Virus record (IMG/VR): IMGVR_UViG_3300012983_002979
Origin: a virus
Taxonomy: Duplodnaviria; Heunggongvirae; Uroviricota; Caudoviricetes
Length of the DNA: 10,826 bases
Direction: 5' to 3' (one strand)
Both the position numbers and the translations under genes were made by a program. The notes beneath the pieces are model-generated. The model did not search any database and was not told where the DNA came from. It saw only the letters and a program-made list of their open reading frames with translations. The first letter of the stretch is position 1. Each line of letters begins with the position of its first letter. Positions 1 through 10,193 of this stretch are shown here, in pieces.

Positions 1-120
1 GCTAGTTTGTTAGTGGCGTGTCCGTCCGCAGCTGGCAAGCGAATGTAAAGACTGACTAAGCATGTAGTACCGAGGATGTAGGAATTTCGGACGCGGGTTC
101 AACTCCCGCCAGCTCCACCA
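1..120 (+). ncRNA. ssrA: tmRNA (SsrA), 3' terminal 120 nt; gene is truncated by the window start
   Basis: Sequence matches my recollection of the 3' part of E. coli tmRNA, ending in the tRNA-like acceptor arm GGTTCAACTCCCGCCAGCTCCACCA with terminal CCA at 118-120. Recognised from memory, not from a search. Confidence 0.92.
98..120 (+). other. Putative attL core at the ssrA 3' end (island/chromosome junction)
   Basis: An integrase gene lies immediately downstream of the tmRNA 3' end, and a degenerate copy of this segment recurs at 10688-10707. Exact crossover limits cannot be set from one window. Confidence 0.4.
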
Positions 121-303: not shown

Positions 304-1497
304 GTGGCTCGGACAACACGCCCTCTGAGCAACACCGAAGTTCTACGTGCTAAAGCGCTAGATAAGGATCTAACACTGCATGATGGTGATGGGCTTTTTC
401 TGATAGTGAAAACAAACGGTAAAAAACTCTGGCGCTTTCGCTATCAACGACCAACTACAAAAAAAAGAACAATGATAGGGATAGGTGCTTTCCCAGCTAT
501 CTCACTTGCTGATGCTAGAAGGTTAAGGGCGAATTATCTTGCTTTGTTAGCTAATGGCCTAGATCCACAAGTTCAAGCTGAACTTATCGAAGAACAACAA
601 CAGATAGCCATAGACAGTATTTTTTCGACTGTTGCATTCAATTGGTTCCAGCTAAAAAGCAAAAGCGTTACCCCTGATTACGCTAAGGATATATGGCGCT
701 CTCTGGAAAAGGACATATTCCCAGCTATCGGGGAGCTCCCTGTCCAGCAAATCAAAGCCCGGACTCTAGTCGAAGCCCTTGAGCCAATAAAAGCACGTGG
801 GGCTCTTGAAACTGTACGTCGCCTGATACAGCGGATTAACGAGATTATGATTTATGCCGTAAATACTGGTCTGCTCGATGCAAATCCTGCATCAGGCGTC
901 GGGATGGCCTTTGAAAAACCCAAAAAACAAAATATGCGGACGCTGAGACCTGAAGAACTGCCGGAACTAATGCGTTCTTTAGCTATGTCAAACTTATCCG
1001 TTCCCACTCGCTGTCTTATAGAATGGCAACTTCTGACCCTCGTGCGTCCATCAGAGGCATCTGGTGCTCGGTGGGCTGAGCTCGATCTGGATGCAAAGCT
1101 CTGGGTGATTCCAAGCGAGCGGATGAAGGCTAAGCGAGAACATATTGTTCCTTTGTCTCCTCAAGCCTTAGACATTCTTATGGTGATGAAACCAATAAGT
1201 GGGCATCGGACATATATTTTTCCGAGTCGAAACGATCCCCAAAAAGCAATGAATAGCCAAACAGCAAATGCGGCATTAAAACGTATTGGATATGGACAAA
1301 AATTGGTTGCTCATGGTTTGCGTTCTATTGCAAGTACAGCGATGAATGAGGCAGGTTTTAATTCAGATGTTATTGAAACTGCACTTTCTCATGTTGACAA
1401 AGACGAAGTTCGGCGTGCATATAATCGCGCTTTATATCTCGAGCAACGTAAAGAGCTTTTAAATTGGTGGGGATTATTTGTCATGAACTCTAAATAA
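304..1497 (+). CDS. int: Tyrosine site-specific recombinase, P4-type integrase (397 aa, GTG start)
   Basis: ORF 304..1497 with AAGGAG 8 nt upstream. N-terminus (GDGLFLIVKTNGKKLWRFRY) resembles the arm-binding domain of P4-family integrases; C-terminus has HGLRS...RAYNRALYLEQR consistent with the catalytic His/Arg/Tyr region. Location next to the tmRNA 3' end is typical. Confidence 0.9.
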   Translation: MARTTRPLSNTEVLRAKALDKDLTLHDGDGLFLIVKTNGKKLWRFRYQRPTTKKRTMIGIGAFPAISLADARRLRANYLALLANGLDPQVQAELIEEQQQIAIDSIFSTVAFNWFQLKSKSVTPDYAKDIWRSLEKDIFPAIGELPVQQIKARTLVEALEPIKARGALETVRRLIQRINEIMIYAVNTGLLDANPASGVGMAFEKPKKQNMRTLRPEELPELMRSLAMSNLSVPTRCLIEWQLLTLVRPSEASGARWAELDLDAKLWVIPSERMKAKREHIVPLSPQALDILMVMKPISGHRTYIFPSRNDPQKAMNSQTANAALKRIGYGQKLVAHGLRSIASTAMNEAGFNSDVIETALSHVDKDEVRRAYNRALYLEQRKELLNWWGLFVMNSK

Positions 1498-1522: not shown

Positions 1523-1546
1523 AAGGCTTTCATTCATGAAAGCCTT
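1523..1546 (-). terminator. Perfect 10-bp-stem hairpin between convergent int and cargo genes; likely terminator for the cargo operon
   Basis: AAGGCTTTCA-ttca-TGAAAGCCTT. On the minus-strand transcript the hairpin is followed by AAAAUUUUU. It overlaps the last codons and stop of cargo gene 2. Confidence 0.45.
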
Positions 1547-2189
1547 CTGTAACAATTATAGGTTCATCTAGCATATATTGTTTTGCAACATATAAAGGAA
1601 AAAAATCTGAGGTATAAAAATTAAAAATATCCCATTGGATATAACACCAAAAAAGAATAACCAAAAGCATCAATGTTATATTTGCCATGGATATATGAAA
1701 ACTCCACAACAAACAAAACAAAAGAGAAAAAATAATCTCAGAGTTAATTATCTTAACTCGAAGATTAGCCTTTTTATCTGATATCTTTTTATCTATCTCC
1801 TTAATAATAAAAAAATCATGGGCATCATTTCGTTTTAACCCCTCATATTTCTCATAAATCCTTAAAATATAGCCATCAAAATCACCAATAAAAACAAGGT
1901 GATTGAAAACTGAAAAGTTTATTTTCTTATGACCATAATTTAAAACCAGAGAAATGATTAGGGCTTGTATTAATTGCAACACTGAAAGCCCTGACAGTAC
2001 TCCCTGTTGAAAATCAAGCACATCCTTAAGGGAAGTTTGATTCATGATATTATATATATCAACATTACCTTTCTGATAAGTCAACATAAAGAAAATTACC
2101 ATGAATAATATCAAAAAACGATGAAGAGGATACTTACAAGTAAGATCCTCAATATATTTCTCTTGGACTTTTTTTGCTAGTTCATCCAT
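1530..2189 (-). CDS. Hypothetical integral membrane protein, ~219 aa, four predicted TM helices (hotspot cargo gene 2)
   Basis: ORF 1530..2222 minus; preferred start is the ATG at 2189-2187 (MDELAKK...), which overlaps the upstream stop as TAATG and has AGGTG 5 nt upstream. Hydrophobic segments FLILFMVIFFMLTY, VLSGLSVLQLIQALIISLVL, IIFSLLFCLLWSF and ITLMLLVILFWCYIQW, with a charged ~60-aa loop between TM2 and TM3. Very AT-rich. Confidence 0.65.
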   Translation of the reverse strand: MDELAKKVQEKYIEDLTCKYPLHRFLILFMVIFFMLTYQKGNVDIYNIMNQTSLKDVLDFQQGVLSGLSVLQLIQALIISLVLNYGHKKINFSVFNHLVFIGDFDGYILRIYEKYEGLKRNDAHDFFIIKEIDKKISDKKANLRVKIINSEIIFSLLFCLLWSFHISMANITLMLLVILFWCYIQWDIFNFYTSDFFPLYVAKQYMLDEPIIVTEGFHE

Positions 2190-3088
2190 TAATACACCTG
2201 TATAAAATATACATCTCCACAATTTGGATCAAAAGCTCCATATTCTATATATGGAGCACCTAAAAACACCATCTCTCTTTCATTCTGAAAATAAGGAAAA
2301 ACCTCTTGAAAATCTTCTTTTGAGGCAAATCTCAGTGTACTTACCGAATTGTTAAAACTGTTTTTCATTTTAGCAGAAAGATATTGCAAATCCATCTCTG
2401 TAACTTTCACTCGATAAATTACAGGGTCACCCAATTTCTTCCTAGTTATAACCCTATGAAAATCATTGGCTTTTGCTCTATTGAACCCAAAAACCTCTGT
2501 GCGATCTGCTGTCAACGATATTTCTAGCGAGCTATCCCCTGAATGATGAGACCTAATAATTGCCAACATTTGATCTATCTCTCTCACAATTGCTCGGTCA
2601 CCATACCGTCGATTAACTGCTGCATCCGGATTTTCCAAAAGTTGCTGATAATCACGAGGTAAAATTTTCTGGCTAGCAATTTGTGCACGTCTAGTCTCTA
2701 CACTTTTACTAATAGTTTCAGCATTTTCAAGACCAGACTGCTGTGCTTCTTTAACTGCATTATTTAGTGCATTTGAAACCCTTTCGACTACTTTTTTTGT
2801 AACATCTTTCTTAGAGAAGAAGTCGATAATATATCCACCTTCTCTAGGGGGCTGTACCAACAGTTCAACATCTTTATAGTAGTCATGATGCATCTTTGCA
2901 TATTTCCAAAGATTACCATGTCTGATGTCAAGATAAGCCCGATCTAAGGCACTTTGCAAATGGCCTAGGCTTTTAGAAAGAGTTCTCAGGGATACTTGGT
3001 GATCAGGTGCAATATCGCCATCAAAATGCAATTCAACAATCGCCACTTCACTTTGCTCCATGTGGAAAAATAAGTCGTTAATGTTCAT
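2189..3088 (-). CDS. Hypothetical protein, 299 aa, no recognisable motif (hotspot cargo gene 1)
   Basis: Long ORF in AT-rich DNA, same orientation as and translationally coupled to the membrane-protein gene. No Walker A, zinc finger or obvious nuclease motif seen by eye. The SD upstream of the ATG at 3088 is weak. Confidence 0.7.
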   Translation of the reverse strand: MNINDLFFHMEQSEVAIVELHFDGDIAPDHQVSLRTLSKSLGHLQSALDRAYLDIRHGNLWKYAKMHHDYYKDVELLVQPPREGGYIIDFFSKKDVTKKVVERVSNALNNAVKEAQQSGLENAETISKSVETRRAQIASQKILPRDYQQLLENPDAAVNRRYGDRAIVREIDQMLAIIRSHHSGDSSLEISLTADRTEVFGFNRAKANDFHRVITRKKLGDPVIYRVKVTEMDLQYLSAKMKNSFNNSVSTLRFASKEDFQEVFPYFQNEREMVFLGAPYIEYGAFDPNCGDVYFIQVY

Positions 3089-3194
3089 ATATTACGTTCA
3101 TATAAAGCACAGATCTACATCTTGAAAATGAATTTTAAAGCTGAATGAGATTTGTGATAATTCTAAAAGACATTTTTATGATACATCGCGCGCA

Positions 3195-3213
3195 GTGCTT
3201 TCCCCGCCTCGCC
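3195..3213. other. cos site: P2/P4-type 19-nt cohesive end (reverse complement of GGCGAGGCGGGGAAAGCAC)
   Basis: 3195-3213 reads GTGCTTTCCCCGCCTCGCC, whose reverse complement matches the P2/P4 cohesive-end sequence as I recall it. Flanked by GC-rich dyad symmetry (3203-3232). Position between int/cargo and psu agrees with P4 organisation. Confidence 0.55.
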
Positions 3214-3314
3214 CGCCCGCTTTGCGGGGCGGTTTTAATGCAGTTGCACTGACACGCTCAGACCGCGCCGGGAATGGTGCGGTCTGCAGAAAATGAGGCA
3301 GGAAAACGCATGCA

Positions 3315-3377: not shown

Positions 3378-3950
3378 TTACACAGACTGATGTGATGCCA
3401 GTTGCGCACTTTTACGCGAAAAAATCATGTTCTGCGCAGGGGTGAATTTTTCACGGCTGTCATCCACCGAAGCCGCGTCAGGCCTGAATCCGATGGTCGT
3501 TAAAATGTCGCTATCCTGTGCGGAATAATTAATTTTTTCACCCTTCGCAAGCCAGGACAGGAGGGCTTCACGCAGGGCATCTGTGGCACGCTGTATGGCA
3601 CAGTTTCGGGCAATGGCCGTCAGCTCACTGTAGCCCATCAGCTCCGGTGCCAGTGCCGCCGCCAGTGCTGTGCCGTGCTGCTGCATAAAATCATTCAGCC
3701 GGTCGCGGATGCTGATGTGCTGAACGGCTTCATGCGAACGAATATAACGACCGGCGGCCTGATTCACCTGCCATTTTCTGACTTCGATAATATTGCGTAA
3801 TTCGTCCAGGCGACTGACGTTTCTGCCTTCTCCTGACTGAAGCCGCAGATATTCCTGTTCGGCCGCTGCCAGCTCATTTTTGCGTTGCAGCCATGCTGCT
3901 TTGTTATTCTGACAGGTGTCAAAGGCCTGCTGTAAGGCTGTGCTTTCCAT
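3378..3950 (-). CDS. psu: Psu, polarity suppression / capsid decoration protein (190 aa)
   Basis: 190-aa ORF beginning MESTALQQAFDTCQNNKAAW, which I recognise as P4 Psu; length and position (last gene of the psu-delta-sid operon, adjacent to cos) match. Confidence 0.9.
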   Translation of the reverse strand: MESTALQQAFDTCQNNKAAWLQRKNELAAAEQEYLRLQSGEGRNVSRLDELRNIIEVRKWQVNQAAGRYIRSHEAVQHISIRDRLNDFMQQHGTALAAALAPELMGYSELTAIARNCAIQRATDALREALLSWLAKGEKINYSAQDSDILTTIGFRPDAASVDDSREKFTPAQNMIFSRKSAQLASHQSV

Positions 3951-4023: not shown

Positions 4024-4524
4024 TCATTCCAGACGCAGCGAATATGATTGTGTTTTTAACCGTACTGGCGGCAGTTCCTGTTTTTCATGCAGGCGTTCTG
4101 CCAGTTCGTCCGGTGTGACCGGGCGGACAATGAAGCGGTTGATGGTCTGAAGCGTTTTAAACACCAGACCACAGCCCGGATCCGTGCACACATAAAAACG
4201 TTCGGTGACTTCCTGAGACAGACGCCGCGATGTTCTTGACAGTGCAAGGCCTTTACATCTCCGACAACAATATCCGGTAACAAGCATTCTTTTCGGGCGT
4301 TTCATACTGCCGGAGGCAGAAGTCAGTGAATCGCGGTATCTCTGTTTGCCTGAAATGTATTCCATTCCTGAATCTTTACTGTCAGAGAAAAAGCTTTCAC
4401 TCGCTTCAAATGTCGCAGAGCAATAAATATTCCGGCACTGTGCAATCATTATCTTGGTGCCATCGTCCATGAAATGTGCGCGGCGGGTGTGAGCAACATG
4501 TCCACACGACGGGCAGTAAATCAT
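4024..4524 (-). CDS. delta: Delta, late-gene transcription activator with tandem Ogr-like zinc-finger domains (166 aa)
   Basis: Two Cys-rich Ogr-type halves (CPSCGH...CRNIYC and CCRRCKG...CTDPGC). 166 aa as in P4 Delta. Start overlaps the sid stop as ATGA (4521-4524). Confidence 0.9.
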   Translation of the reverse strand: MIYCPSCGHVAHTRRAHFMDDGTKIMIAQCRNIYCSATFEASESFFSDSKDSGMEYISGKQRYRDSLTSASGSMKRPKRMLVTGYCCRRCKGLALSRTSRRLSQEVTERFYVCTDPGCGLVFKTLQTINRFIVRPVTPDELAERLHEKQELPPVRLKTQSYSLRLE

Positions 4525-5255
4525 GACAGCAGTCCTCTGGCCTTAAGCTCTGCACCCTGCTGGTCTATTTTGTCCTGCCACACCTTGCGCTGTGCCGGTG
4601 TGCCTGCCACCTCATAATCCATGTGCGGGAGTGTTGCCGCTGACAGTCCGGTCAGCCGGAGAACCGGCTCGCCGGTGAGGCTGATTTGCATCTGTTTAAT
4701 TTTCTGTTCCAGCGATGATTTCACCTGCTGCATGACAGCTTTATCGGGTGCGACGTAGCCCTGATGGCCGGTGGTGTTGGCGAGCGGATTTTCCTGTACC
4801 AGGATACTCAGATGCATTGCCCGGACAAGCGCCTCACAGGTTTCATTCAGGGCGTGTTCCAGCTCATGCTCTGCATACAGACTCAGAAGGTGATGATGTG
4901 CCTTCCGGTAGGCGGTGGCCGTGCTGTCACACGCCCCTTTCAGGCGTTCACGTTCGAAATTCAGCACCACGGCCAGATTGTCATATTCCTGTACCAGCTC
5001 CCGGCGTGCCACGCGCTCAATGTGGCGCTGTTTCAGCTCGTCGCTCAGGACACCACCGGCTGCACGAAAGGCCGTGCGCCAGTCGTCAGCGTCGTTTCCG
5101 TCGGCCTGCGCCAGCGCATTTTTTTCCTGCTCTGCCCGTTCAATGGCCGTGACGGTCTCATCCATCAGGCGGGCGTTCTCAAGGTGGGCGGCTCTGGCCT
5201 TTTCCAGTTGTGCCAGTGCGGGTTGCAGATATTCAGGGATGGTGTTGTCAGACAT
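4521..5255 (-). CDS. sid: Sid, external scaffold / capsid size determination protein (244 aa from the ATG at 5255)
   Basis: ORF 4521..5273; the ATG at 5255-5253 has GAGGAG 8 nt upstream and gives 244 aa, the P4 Sid length as I recall it. The track's start at 5273 is a GTG. Coiled-coil-like, Ala/Glu/Leu-rich composition. Confidence 0.85.
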   Translation of the reverse strand: MSDNTIPEYLQPALAQLEKARAAHLENARLMDETVTAIERAEQEKNALAQADGNDADDWRTAFRAAGGVLSDELKQRHIERVARRELVQEYDNLAVVLNFERERLKGACDSTATAYRKAHHHLLSLYAEHELEHALNETCEALVRAMHLSILVQENPLANTTGHQGYVAPDKAVMQQVKSSLEQKIKQMQISLTGEPVLRLTGLSAATLPHMDYEVAGTPAQRKVWQDKIDQQGAELKARGLLS

Positions 5256-5289
5256 TTTCCGGCTCCTCGTCACTTCAGGTTAAGAAAAT

Positions 5290-6138: not shown

Positions 6139-6329
6139 TTTTTCCGCTGTCGCAAAATCGGCAGCCGGGCGTAGGAACCCGTGTAACTCGAAGGCGACAT
6201 ATGACGCGCCATGCGTCTTTTTTTGTGTCGCAATCAACGCCACAGAGCGCCAGATTATGGTGTGGCGTGTGGTTTGCCGTGCAGGTATGATCCTGTTCGC
6301 AATCGCATGTTATGCCACTGAGTCAATGG

Positions 6330-6400
6330 TAGCTCAGGCGGGGCAGCCTCCGGGCTGGCCGGTATTCTTCGAGGCCGGTATTCCTACCCCCGTCTGGGCT
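6330..6400 (+). ncRNA. cI: CI-like immunity RNA region (seqB-like core); boundaries approximate
   Basis: The central segment 6367-6387 (CTTCGAGGCCGGTATTCCTAC) is complementary to the bipartite GTAGGAA...CTCGAAG(G) motifs at 6171-6194 and 6414-6453, as in P4 seqA/seqB/seqC. RNA ends cannot be set from sequence. Confidence 0.35.
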
Positions 6401-6463
6401 ATCGCCATCGAGCGTAGGAACTCCGGCGATAGCAGTTATTTGCTACTCGAAGGAGACTGCCTT

Positions 6464-7859: not shown

Positions 7860-10193
7860 ATGAAAATGAACGTAACCGCCACCGTCAGCCATGCGCTCGG
7901 CCACTGGCCGCGTATTCTCCCGGCGCTGGGGATTCAGGTGCTGAAAAACCGTCATCAGCCCTGTCCGGTCTGTGGCGGGAGTGACCGCTTCCGTTTTGAT
8001 GACAGGGAGGGGCGCGGCACCTGGTACTGCAATCAGTGTGGTGCCGGTGACGGCCTGAAACTGGTTGAAAAGGTGTTTGGTGTTTCCCCGTCCGACGCGG
8101 CCGCAAAGGTGGCTGCCGTGACCGGCAGCCTGCCACCGGCTGACCCGGCAGTGACGACCGCCGCCGTTGCTGAAACAGACGCTGCCCGGAAGAGCGCCGC
8201 CGCACTGGCACAAACCCTGATGGCGAAAACCCGTCCCGGAACCGGTAACGCCTACCTGACCCGCAAGGGCTTTCCCGGCCGGGAATGCCGGATGCTGACC
8301 GGCACACTCAGAGCCGGTGGCGTGAGCTGGCGTGCCGGTGACCTTGTGGTGCCACTGTATGACGACAGCGGCGAACTGGTTAACCTTCAGTTAATCAGTG
8401 CTGACGGCCGTAAGCGCACCCTGAAAGGCGGACAGGTCAGGGGCACCTGTCACACCCTTGAAGGACAGAATCAGGCCGGAAAACGTCTGTGGATAGCGGA
8501 GGGATACGCGACCGCACTTACCGTACATCACCTGACCGGTGAAACGGTGATGGTGGCGCTTTCTTCCGTGAACCTCCTTTCTCTGGCCAGCCTTGCCCGG
8601 CAGAAGCATCCGGCCTGTCAGATTGTCCTTGCCGCAGACCGTGACCTCAGCGGTGACGGCCAGAAAAAAGCCGCCGCAGCCGCAGATGCGTGTGAAGGTG
8701 TTGTTGCCCTGCCGCCGGTCTTCGGTGACTGGAATGATGCCTTCACGCAGTACGGCGGGGAGGTCACCCGTAAGGCCATTTACGATGCCATCCGGCCACC
8801 GGCTGAAAGCCCGTTCGACACCATGAGCGAAGCAGAGTTTTCCGCCATGAGTACCAGCGAAAAGGCCATGCGTATCTATGAGCATTACGGCGAGGCGCTC
8901 GCGGTCGATGCCAACGGCCAGCTTCTGTCCCGCTATGAAAATGGTGTCTGGAAGGTGCTGCCGCCACAGGACTTTGCCCGGGATGTGGCCGGGCTGTTTC
9001 AGCGTCTGCGCGCGCCGTTCTCCTCCGGGAAGGTGGCCTCCGTGGTGGACACCCTGAAGCTGATTATTCCGCAGCAGGAAGCCCCCTCCCGCCGCCTGAT
9101 TGGCTTTCGTAACGGTGTGCTCGACACGCAGAACGGCACGTTCCACCCGCACAGTCCGTCACACTGGATGCGCACCCTGTGCGATGTGGATTTCACCCCG
9201 CCGGTGGACGGTGAAACGCTGGAAACCCACGCCCCCGCGTTCTGGCGCTGGCTTGACCGTGCCGCCGGTGGCCGTGCGGAAAAACGCGACGTGATTCTGG
9301 CCGCACTGTTTATGGTGCTGGCAAACCGCTACGACTGGCAGCTCTTTCTGGAGGTGACCGGTCCCGGCGGCAGCGGCAAAAGTATCATGGCCGAAATAGC
9401 CACCCTGCTGGCCGGGGAGGATAACGCCACGTCGGCCACCATCGAGACGCTGGAATCCCCGCGTGAACGTGCCGCGTTAACTGGCTTCTCACTGATACGC
9501 CTGCCGGACCAGGAAAAATGGAGCGGCGACGGTGCCGGACTCAAGGCCATCACCGGCGGCGATGCGGTGTCCGTGGACCCGAAATACCGGGATGCGTACT
9601 CCACGCATATCCCGGCGGTGATTCTGGCCGTGAACAATAACCCGATGCGCTTCACCGACCGCAGCGGCGGCGTGTCACGCCGGCGGGTGATTATTCACTT
9701 CCCGGAACAGATAGCCCCGCAGGAGCGCGACCCGCAGCTTAAGGACAAAATCACCCGCGAGCTGGCGGTCATCGTGCGTCACCTGATGCAGAAATTCAGC
9801 GACCCGATGCTCGCCCGGTCACTGCTTCAGTCCCAGCAGAACTCAGACGAGGCACTGAACATCAAACGGGATGCCGACCCGACGTTTGATTTTATCGGCT
9901 ATCTGGAAACCCTGCCGCAGACCAGCGGCATGTATATGGGGAACGCCAGTATCATCCCGCGTAATTACCGTAAATACCTCTATCACGCCTATCTGGCCTA
10001 CATGGAGGCAAACGGCTACCGGAATGTACTCAGTCTGAAAATGTTCGGGCTGGGGCTGCCGGTGATGCTGAAGGAATACGGACTGAATTACGAGAAGCGC
10101 CATACCAAACAGGGGATACAGACCAACCTGACGCTGAAAGAGGAAAGCTACGGCGACTGGCTGCCAAAATGTGACGACCCTGCAACAACCTGA
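7860..10193 (+). CDS. alpha: Alpha: bifunctional primase-helicase replication protein (777 aa)
   Basis: N-terminal zinc-binding primase motif (CPVCGGSDRFRFDD...WYCNQCG), TOPRIM-like region (LWIAEGYATALT...LAADRD), Walker A (VTGPGGSGKS) in a D5-like helicase domain. 777 aa as in P4 alpha. Confidence 0.95.
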   Translation: MKMNVTATVSHALGHWPRILPALGIQVLKNRHQPCPVCGGSDRFRFDDREGRGTWYCNQCGAGDGLKLVEKVFGVSPSDAAAKVAAVTGSLPPADPAVTTAAVAETDAARKSAAALAQTLMAKTRPGTGNAYLTRKGFPGRECRMLTGTLRAGGVSWRAGDLVVPLYDDSGELVNLQLISADGRKRTLKGGQVRGTCHTLEGQNQAGKRLWIAEGYATALTVHHLTGETVMVALSSVNLLSLASLARQKHPACQIVLAADRDLSGDGQKKAAAAADACEGVVALPPVFGDWNDAFTQYGGEVTRKAIYDAIRPPAESPFDTMSEAEFSAMSTSEKAMRIYEHYGEALAVDANGQLLSRYENGVWKVLPPQDFARDVAGLFQRLRAPFSSGKVASVVDTLKLIIPQQEAPSRRLIGFRNGVLDTQNGTFHPHSPSHWMRTLCDVDFTPPVDGETLETHAPAFWRWLDRAAGGRAEKRDVILAALFMVLANRYDWQLFLEVTGPGGSGKSIMAEIATLLAGEDNATSATIETLESPRERAALTGFSLIRLPDQEKWSGDGAGLKAITGGDAVSVDPKYRDAYSTHIPAVILAVNNNPMRFTDRSGGVSRRRVIIHFPEQIAPQERDPQLKDKITRELAVIVRHLMQKFSDPMLARSLLQSQQNSDEALNIKRDADPTFDFIGYLETLPQTSGMYMGNASIIPRNYRKYLYHAYLAYMEANGYRNVLSLKMFGLGLPVMLKEYGLNYEKRHTKQGIQTNLTLKEESYGDWLPKCDDPATT

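Follow-up and report, generated by a model that had tools for sequence, protein, structure and literature searches.

A conserved gene pair in the int-psu cargo slot of a P4-like satellite encodes a predicted OB-fold protein and a four-transmembrane partner

The DNA analysed here, referred to throughout as the window, is the whole 10,826-nucleotide stretch of the IMG/VR virus record IMGVR_UViG_3300012983_002979, and the element it holds is a P4-like phage satellite integrated at ssrA. Between the integrase gene (int) and psu lies an operon of two cargo genes on the minus strand, the first encoding cargo protein 1, our main subject, and the second encoding cargo protein 2, a protein with four transmembrane (TM) segments. 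The two genes overlap and form a conserved, co-evolving pair that has repeatedly been placed in the cargo slots of mobile elements. The slot and its boundaries contain the following features.

304..1497, plus strand: P4-type integrase, the left hotspot boundary (Pfam Phage_integrase, Phage_int_M and Arm-DNA-bind_3)
1523..1546, minus strand: hairpin over the cargo protein 2 stop codon, 10 pairs with a weak T-tail; candidate operon terminator
1530..2189, minus strand: cargo protein 2, 219 residues, WP_024238669.1; inner-membrane partner with four hydrophobic helices
2189..3088, minus strand: cargo protein 1 as annotated, 299 residues, WP_024238668.1; an ATG-to-TAA open reading frame (ORF) of 299 codons
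2189..3061, minus strand: coding region of cargo protein 1 with the probable true start, Met10; 290 residues
3132..3160, minus strand: sigma-70-like promoter candidate of the cargo operon, TTATCA, 17-nucleotide spacer, TAAAAT (consensus scan, 9/12 matches)
3213..3232, no strand assigned: hairpin rich in guanine and cytosine (GC), with a 6-bp all-GC stem, between psu and the cargo operon
3378..3950, minus strand: psu, encoding the polarity suppression protein, the right hotspot boundary (Pfam Psu, E = 4e-88)

The cargo operon is thus bracketed by two hairpins, at 3213-3232 and 1523-1546. The first of these lies just downstream of psu and is likely to be the psu terminator, separating two transcription units.

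The stop codon of cargo gene 1 overlaps the start codon of cargo gene 2 (TAATG, 2187-2191, minus strand), an arrangement that suggests translational coupling of the two. Cargo protein 2 has a predicted N-in/C-in topology with a K/R-rich cytoplasmic loop of 66 residues between TM2 and TM3, and a remark in Table S1 of Rousset et al. (2022; PMC9122126) reads '4 TM in protein 2'. Our ORF list runs this protein from TTG 2222 (230 residues); both the Prokaryotic Genome Annotation Pipeline (PGAP) and Rousset et al. start it at ATG 2189 (219 residues). A reading of the window from its sequence only, made before this analysis, had taken cargo protein 1 to be one component of a pair, and the genomic record supports a conserved pair in a satellite cargo slot. 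In an automated scan, 20/26 genomic loci had a homologous partner of ~218-248 residues immediately after the first gene (spacing -38 to +24 nucleotides), and inspection revealed the partner in two of the remaining six (L013 and L018). Three loci from Desulfobacterota have a small ORF with 2-3 TM segments immediately upstream (L010, 4266-4634; L011, 7736-7975; L019, 7600-7968) and no downstream four-TM partner; in L019 the cargo protein 1 homologue appears frameshifted. All seven of the IMG/VR loci examined in detail (33-57% identical) also had the TM partner directly downstream, so that nearly every locus inspected had a membrane partner, and over 11 loci the identities of cargo proteins 1 and 2 co-vary closely (Spearman 0.96).

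The ORF reported for cargo protein 1 is present as described, and its gene is clearly functional and under strong purifying selection: the ratio of nonsynonymous to synonymous substitution rates (dN/dS) is 0.065 when the gene is compared with a 92%-identical allele and 0.064 in the comparison with the Buttiauxella orthologue. Its more likely translation start is Met10 (ATG 3061), 27 nucleotides downstream of the annotated one. Across 49 aligned homologues conservation sets in at about residue 15, the length of most relatives is 285-290 residues, 290-residue annotations are present in the protein's own 90% cluster, and the Buttiauxella orthologue (85% identical) begins 'MRTEQNEV' with no counterpart of window residues 1-9; it is these observations that favour Met10. 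Residues 1-10 have a predicted local distance difference test score (pLDDT) of 56 in the structural model described below.

The initiation signals are weak, as had been suspected from the sequence. The best Shine-Dalgarno (SD) candidate at ATG 3088 has 3/6 matches to AGGAGG, and no SD-like sequence was found upstream of ATG 3061 either. A direct repeat said to overlap the start does exist, with ATATGAAC occurring twice (3083-3090 and 3096-3103), but it is not distinctive, because local 8-mer repeats are common in the window, which holds 34 cases of 8-mers repeated within 30 nucleotides; the low-GC region has 5 local 8-mer repeats against 1.2 ± 1.6 in shuffled sequences. Nor is there any sign of a regulatory role for this repeat. 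The promoter candidate at 3132..3160 falls within the fragment that Rousset et al. cloned as bearing the native promoter, and the count of such promoter-like sites in the region is no higher than in shuffles.

Cargo protein 1 proved to be as charged and hydrophilic as had been stated, with 27% charged residues and no hydrophobic segment, and it carries no motif recognisable by eye: Walker A, CxxC and HxxxH are absent, and no catalytic or DNA-binding sequence motif was found. It has no TM segment and no signal peptide, and its maximum 19-residue hydropathy is 0.45. The Cys/Gly-containing C-terminal tail (...GAFDPNCGDVYFIQVY) is there, but it makes up no motif and its Cys is not conserved; Cys290, the sole Cys of the protein, is Ala in 27/49 homologues. 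The tail positions that are conserved in the homologue alignment are P279, E282, G291 and D292, in the final hairpin of the fold described below. No model in Pfam, NCBIfam or PADLOC reached threshold for cargo protein 1. For the two cargo proteins together, Pfam, NCBIfam, PADLOC and PHROGs returned sub-threshold matches only, save PHROGs of unknown function. Searches of the PDB by sequence, with the single query and with the family profile, gave only noise, such as the haemagglutinin HA2 coiled coil at E about 0.01.

An AlphaFold2 model of cargo protein 1, built with the family alignment, is confident (pLDDT 90.4, predicted template-modelling score 0.83). The protein is soluble and in this model has two parts, an alpha/beta domain of residues ~15-218 and an acidic oligonucleotide/oligosaccharide-binding (OB) fold of residues ~219-299. 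The predicted OB elements are strands 223-233, 238-243 and 249-253, a helix at 257-268, and strands 272-282 and 293-298, giving the topology of three strands, a helix and two strands that places the domain in the OB structural class. The OB-fold matches vanish once residues 219-299, the last 81, are removed. The domain is acidic across the family, with a median net charge of -3 and an isoelectric point (pI) of 4.9, and this acidity, together with the invariant P279, E282, G291 and D292 and the lack of an SSB match in Pfam, sets it apart from the single-stranded DNA (ssDNA)-binding OB class of SSB, RPA and PriB. The N-terminal domain (residues ~10-218), when modelled alone, has a pLDDT of 82.8, and no solved structure matched it. 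Most of the invariant polar residues of the protein are located in this domain: H21, D23, H30, R35, Q45, R50, K62, R103, Y162, D164, R165, E170, D172 and H211. A HEPN domain, considered on the strength of R204-x6-H211, was rejected; HEPN was matched neither by sequence nor by fold, and only H211 is conserved.

The remaining features of the window place the pair within a satellite.

1-120, plus strand: 3' part of the transfer-messenger RNA gene (ssrA), truncated by the window start, marking the satellite integration site (Rfam)
4024-4524: delta (Pfam)
4521-5273, minus strand: ORF in the sid position and of sid size, 250 residues
6146-6223, plus strand: isrK RNA (Rfam, 69 bits, over the gathering score)
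6322-6409, plus strand: C4 antisense RNA (Rfam, 74 bits, over the gathering score)
7860-10193: alpha primase (Pfam)

The int-psu slot of the window is thus that of a P4-like satellite hotspot, with integrase, psu, delta, primase, C4 RNA and low-GC cargo all present; the C4 family comprises the immunity RNAs of P1/P7 and P4. In contrast to the adjoining psu and delta, the ORF in the sid position had no Pfam match at E <= 1. The cargo ORFs have a GC content of 0.28-0.39 against 0.5-0.6 in the remaining window, and it is this low GC that marks the pair as acquired. An identical region is present in E. coli E21845, where PGAP annotates two hypothetical proteins, WP_024238668.1 and WP_024238669.1, with integrase on one side and psu on the other, and where the order of ssrA followed by int is also annotated. 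The full cargo pair lies between int and psu in 24/5426 complete E. coli genomes. Rousset et al. (2022; PMC9122126) regard this slot of P4 satellites as an antiviral reservoir.

Relatives of cargo protein 1 numbered 95 in a word-indexed search and 342 in a profile search with the N-terminal domain; an exhaustive HMMER search of 1.84 billion representatives gave 173 clusters. Among 150 matches listed there were no domain fusions, all having the ~285-297-residue architecture or being fragments, and as judged from these searches the family is small, closed and of fixed architecture. Its source names are 'hypothetical' without exception, and its hosts include Gamma-, Beta- and Deltaproteobacteria, Cyanobacteria and Chrysiogenes. 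Alleles 54-57% identical to those of the window hold the same slot adjoining psu and delta in P4-like elements of Salmonella and Serratia. In Salmonella (L031-L034, 5733-8520) a degenerate P4-like remnant, with delta, psu, the pair and sometimes int or primase fragments, adjoins the hin-fljB-fljA flagellar phase-variation genes, and the protein of these loci is indexed in 280 blocks of the collection. In Serratia (L035/L036, 8528-9388) a third gene, encoding a 286-residue DUF2971 protein, follows the pair and may be an additional component or separate cargo.

Nine family loci were found in IMG/VR, where the neighbours of the homologues include genes of P2 type (GPA, portal, gpP terminase, P2 capsid, CI and CII) and of filamentous phages. 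The pair adjoins AIPR and SIR2 genes in Xanthomonas, and the 118 neighbouring ORFs from other genera include three reverse transcriptases (PADLOC retron/DRT models), three AAA_21 ATPases and two integrases. It also occurs in chromosomal loci without visible phage genes. In Shewanella (L001, 3671-7415) it lies ~500 bp downstream of glmS, at a contig end; this is the classic Tn7-type attachment region, so that the Shewanella pair may be on an island. Searches by tblastn of GenBank phage records and PLSDB plasmid records gave no match.

Weak but recurrent similarity to three other families was detected over the first ~90-100 conserved residues. DUF7946 (PF25678) matches 21/49 family members at E <= 0.01 (best E = 3e-6), and some members bear a precomputed Pfam DUF7946 label; the NCBIfam model LAPAL_fam (NF053583, profile length 292) matches 35/49 members, best E 3e-6; and phrog_3243 (PHROG 3243, profile length 293) matches 26/49, best E 1.5e-6. 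The window protein itself is sub-threshold for all three, with E of 0.002-0.02, far under the curated cut-offs; against DUF7946 it scores 15.5 bits (E = 0.018), compared with a Pfam gathering threshold of 27 bits. From these matches cargo protein 1 is probably a divergent DUF7946 relative over its N-terminal region. The members of DUF7946, LAPAL_fam and PHROG 3243 are uncharacterised, about 290 residues long and partly phage-encoded, and the LAPAL_fam and phrog_3243 profiles come close to cargo protein 1 in total length; since the three families are uncharacterised the link adds no mechanism.

A Foldseek search of viral models returned three full-length matches (E 1e-9 to 8e-12, template-modelling scores 0.33-0.46). 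One is an annotated DUF6575 phage protein; DUF6575 is among the domains new to defence in Vassallo et al. (2022), the main text of which names the domain and not its system. Another, from Leptospira phage LE1 (Q6NE06), was equated with LE1-0037 by its unique length of 381 residues alone, and LE1-0037 matches the PADLOC candidate PDC-M02B at E = 1e-64. In LE1 (L029, BX571876, 38735-43418) a type IIG restriction-methylase (LE1-0039), the DUF4365 protein LE1-0038 (PDC-M02A) and LE1-0037 (PDC-M02B) form a three-gene cluster, such that a candidate defence pair adjoins a restriction-modification enzyme inside a temperate phage. Profile-profile alignment with hhalign gave the family a probability of 0.2% against LE1-0037 alone and 1% against a 12-member PDC-M02B alignment, for which reason we treat PDC-M02B as a structural lead and not as homology. 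Cargo protein 1 was not assigned to PDC-M02: it has no PADLOC match, and its partner is a four-TM membrane protein, whereas that of PDC-M02 is a soluble DUF4365 protein, so that the link is a Foldseek template-modelling score of at most 0.46.

The pair had already been catalogued, and tested with no phenotype reported. In the supplements of Rousset et al. (2022; PMC9122126) WP_024238668 and WP_024238669 are recurrent 'hypothetical + hypothetical' hotspot content, where they make up P4 hotspot system 30; the entry is followed by the number 51, apparently the occurrence count in the E. coli survey. The same authors took the pair from Escherichia marmotae E1118 and cloned it together with its native promoter, giving plasmid pFR87, 'HP + 4TMs'. 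Protein 1 of pFR87 is identical to that of the window over 299 residues, protein 2 differs by one residue, and the position between psu and int is shared. In the later literature, searched as main texts, the pair was not named, and neither the DefensePredictor paper nor the 2026 P4/P2 paper describes a matching system. The pair was left unannotated as system 30; new here are the OB-fold, the N-terminal domain without a solved relative, the closed family with its domain architecture and limits, the wide distribution and the remote family links.

We favour, with middling confidence, a reading in which a two-gene membrane-effector module for exclusion or abortive infection, carried on satellites and prophages, has cargo protein 1 as its cytosolic sensor or adaptor. 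The sequence-only reading had proposed a 'sensor or enzymatic component'. The first half of that proposal fits better, because sensing or regulation is the part that a soluble protein with a four-TM partner would most naturally play; for the second half no enzyme-like fold or motif was found. A strong match to a non-defence family was looked for and did not emerge. Cargo protein 1 would reside in the cytoplasm, free or docked on the K/R-rich cytoplasmic loop of cargo protein 2, and on infection by a competing phage it would bind a phage-derived cue. The acidic OB-fold and the conserved N-terminal domain make a protein or small-ligand cue likelier than nucleic acid. Binding of the cue would then switch cargo protein 2, leading either to collapse of membrane integrity or potential, as in Rex-like abortive infection, or to a block of genome entry, that is, exclusion. 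Any activity against phages is inferred here, as are what the cue is, which way regulation runs and how cargo protein 2 acts.

Two known systems come close to this arrangement. The logic of Rex is that a cytosolic sensor opens a membrane channel, and lambda RexA/RexB and the P4 'RexA + 4TM' system (pFR81) are, like the cargo pair, two-gene operons of prophages or satellites in which a cytosolic protein of ~280 residues is followed by a four-TM protein. The resemblance is limited to operon layout: there is no Pfam Rex match, and BLASTP and hidden Markov model (HMM) comparisons with the P4 RexA-like protein and its 4TM partner (pFR81) showed no similarity to the cargo proteins. Kiwa likewise joins a membrane protein (four-TM KwaA) to a soluble protein of ~300 residues (KwaB, DUF4868) and also occurs in P4 hotspots, but its gene order is the reverse of that in the cargo pair; no PADLOC or Pfam match to Kiwa was obtained, and BLASTP and HMM comparisons with KwaA and KwaB of pFR79 were empty.

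Several observations weigh against a sensor of this kind. The defence role assumed from the sequence is weaker than was supposed, since pFR87, although among the tested systems, is listed in Table S2B ('additional tested systems') and is missing from Table S2A, the list of the seven systems protective against eight coliphages in MG1655; in addition, when 18 P4 systems were challenged with P2-like phages in E. coli C, TIR-NLR alone was protective (PMC9122126). PADLOC 2.0.0 matched no family to cargo protein 1 or cargo protein 2 at E <= 1. Outside enterobacteria the neighbouring genes are mostly ordinary housekeeping genes, the acidity of the OB-fold (net charge -3, pI 4.9) disfavours ssDNA sensing, and the invariant polar residues of the N-terminal domain might just as well belong to a catalytic site. 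The published pFR87 result is not conclusive, because the phage panel was limited. In a 2026 study 6/8 randomly chosen uncharacterised P4 loci were protective when expressed from pTet and challenged with 28 phages, so that one negative result with a native promoter is weak evidence of inactivity, the more so with the SD missing.

A bolder form of the sensor reading seems to us unlikely. The pair would be an anti-phage (or anti-satellite) system of a new type, missed in 2022 through weak native expression or the wrong panel, in which the N-terminal domain and the acidic OB-fold recognise a phage protein and gate the four-TM effector. Remote versions of the fold would be present in the PDC-M02B, DUF7946 and LAPAL proteins, which pair with different effectors, nuclease-like DUF4365 in the case of PDC-M02. 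If this is true, a new and widespread sensor superfamily with swappable effectors would be at hand.

Of the explanations that differ in kind, one makes the pair a toxin-antitoxin (TA)-like addiction module that stabilises the mobile element, the four-TM protein being the toxin and cargo protein 1 the neutraliser, or the reverse. The tight operon with its stop/start overlap, the conserved gene order and the co-evolving partners would all suit such a module, as would the presence of the pair on both satellites and prophages. The negative phage assay is compatible with a non-defence role, and gop-beta-cII of P4, in the same hotspot, has been described as possibly TA-like. We nevertheless think it unlikely: a two-domain protein of 285 residues under this degree of constraint (dN/dS 0.065) is large for a neutraliser, and no helix-turn-helix or other autoregulatory DNA-binding domain was detected in cargo protein 1. 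TA-like and abortive-infection functions are not mutually exclusive, and to that extent this explanation overlaps with the sensor reading.

Similarly doubtful is an enzyme of unseen fold, acting on a small molecule, a nucleic acid or a protein, with cargo protein 2 as its anchor, a transporter or a separate effector. Some 20 polar residues that are invariant or near-invariant in the N-terminal domain, together with the invariant E282 and D292 of the OB domain, are what an active site might leave behind under strong purifying selection, and an N-terminal domain that lacks a solved match leaves room for one that has gone unrecognised. However, neither a catalytic motif nor an enzyme family was found by Pfam, NCBIfam, PADLOC or the PDB profile search.

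That the pair serves the mobile element itself, in lysis timing (holin/antiholin-like), exploitation of the helper or modification of the host envelope, is quite improbable. Phage proteins that are small and have several TM segments often turn out to be holins or exclusion factors, the pair stands outside the validated defence systems of the published test, and it is found in bona fide prophage contexts. Yet the int-psu slot is one for variable cargo and not for core functions, with the pair there in so small a fraction of the E. coli genomes; chromosomal loci that lack visible phage genes also carry it, and its spread over Proteobacteria, Cyanobacteria and Chrysiogenes speaks against a role specific to P4.

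A periplasmic metal binder like SilF or CusF that acts alongside a membrane transporter is very improbable and was rejected: such metal sites use Met and His residues, and cargo protein 1 lacks both a signal peptide and a hydrophobic segment, conserves neither Met nor His in its OB domain and is only 6-7% identical to SilF, while cargo protein 2 has no transporter signature in Pfam.

For anyone re-testing the cargo pair, the corrected start codon and the missing SD matter in practice. Few sources have proved as rich in new bacterial immune systems as the P4/P2 hotspots, where many cargo genes are unannotated. If the pair is active, it would represent a type of sensor that neither sequence nor fold relates to RexA and KwaB, and the DUF7946, LAPAL and phrog_3243 proteins would gain a function through it. 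Should it prove truly inactive against phages, it would be a useful counter-example to the view that all hotspot cargo is defence.

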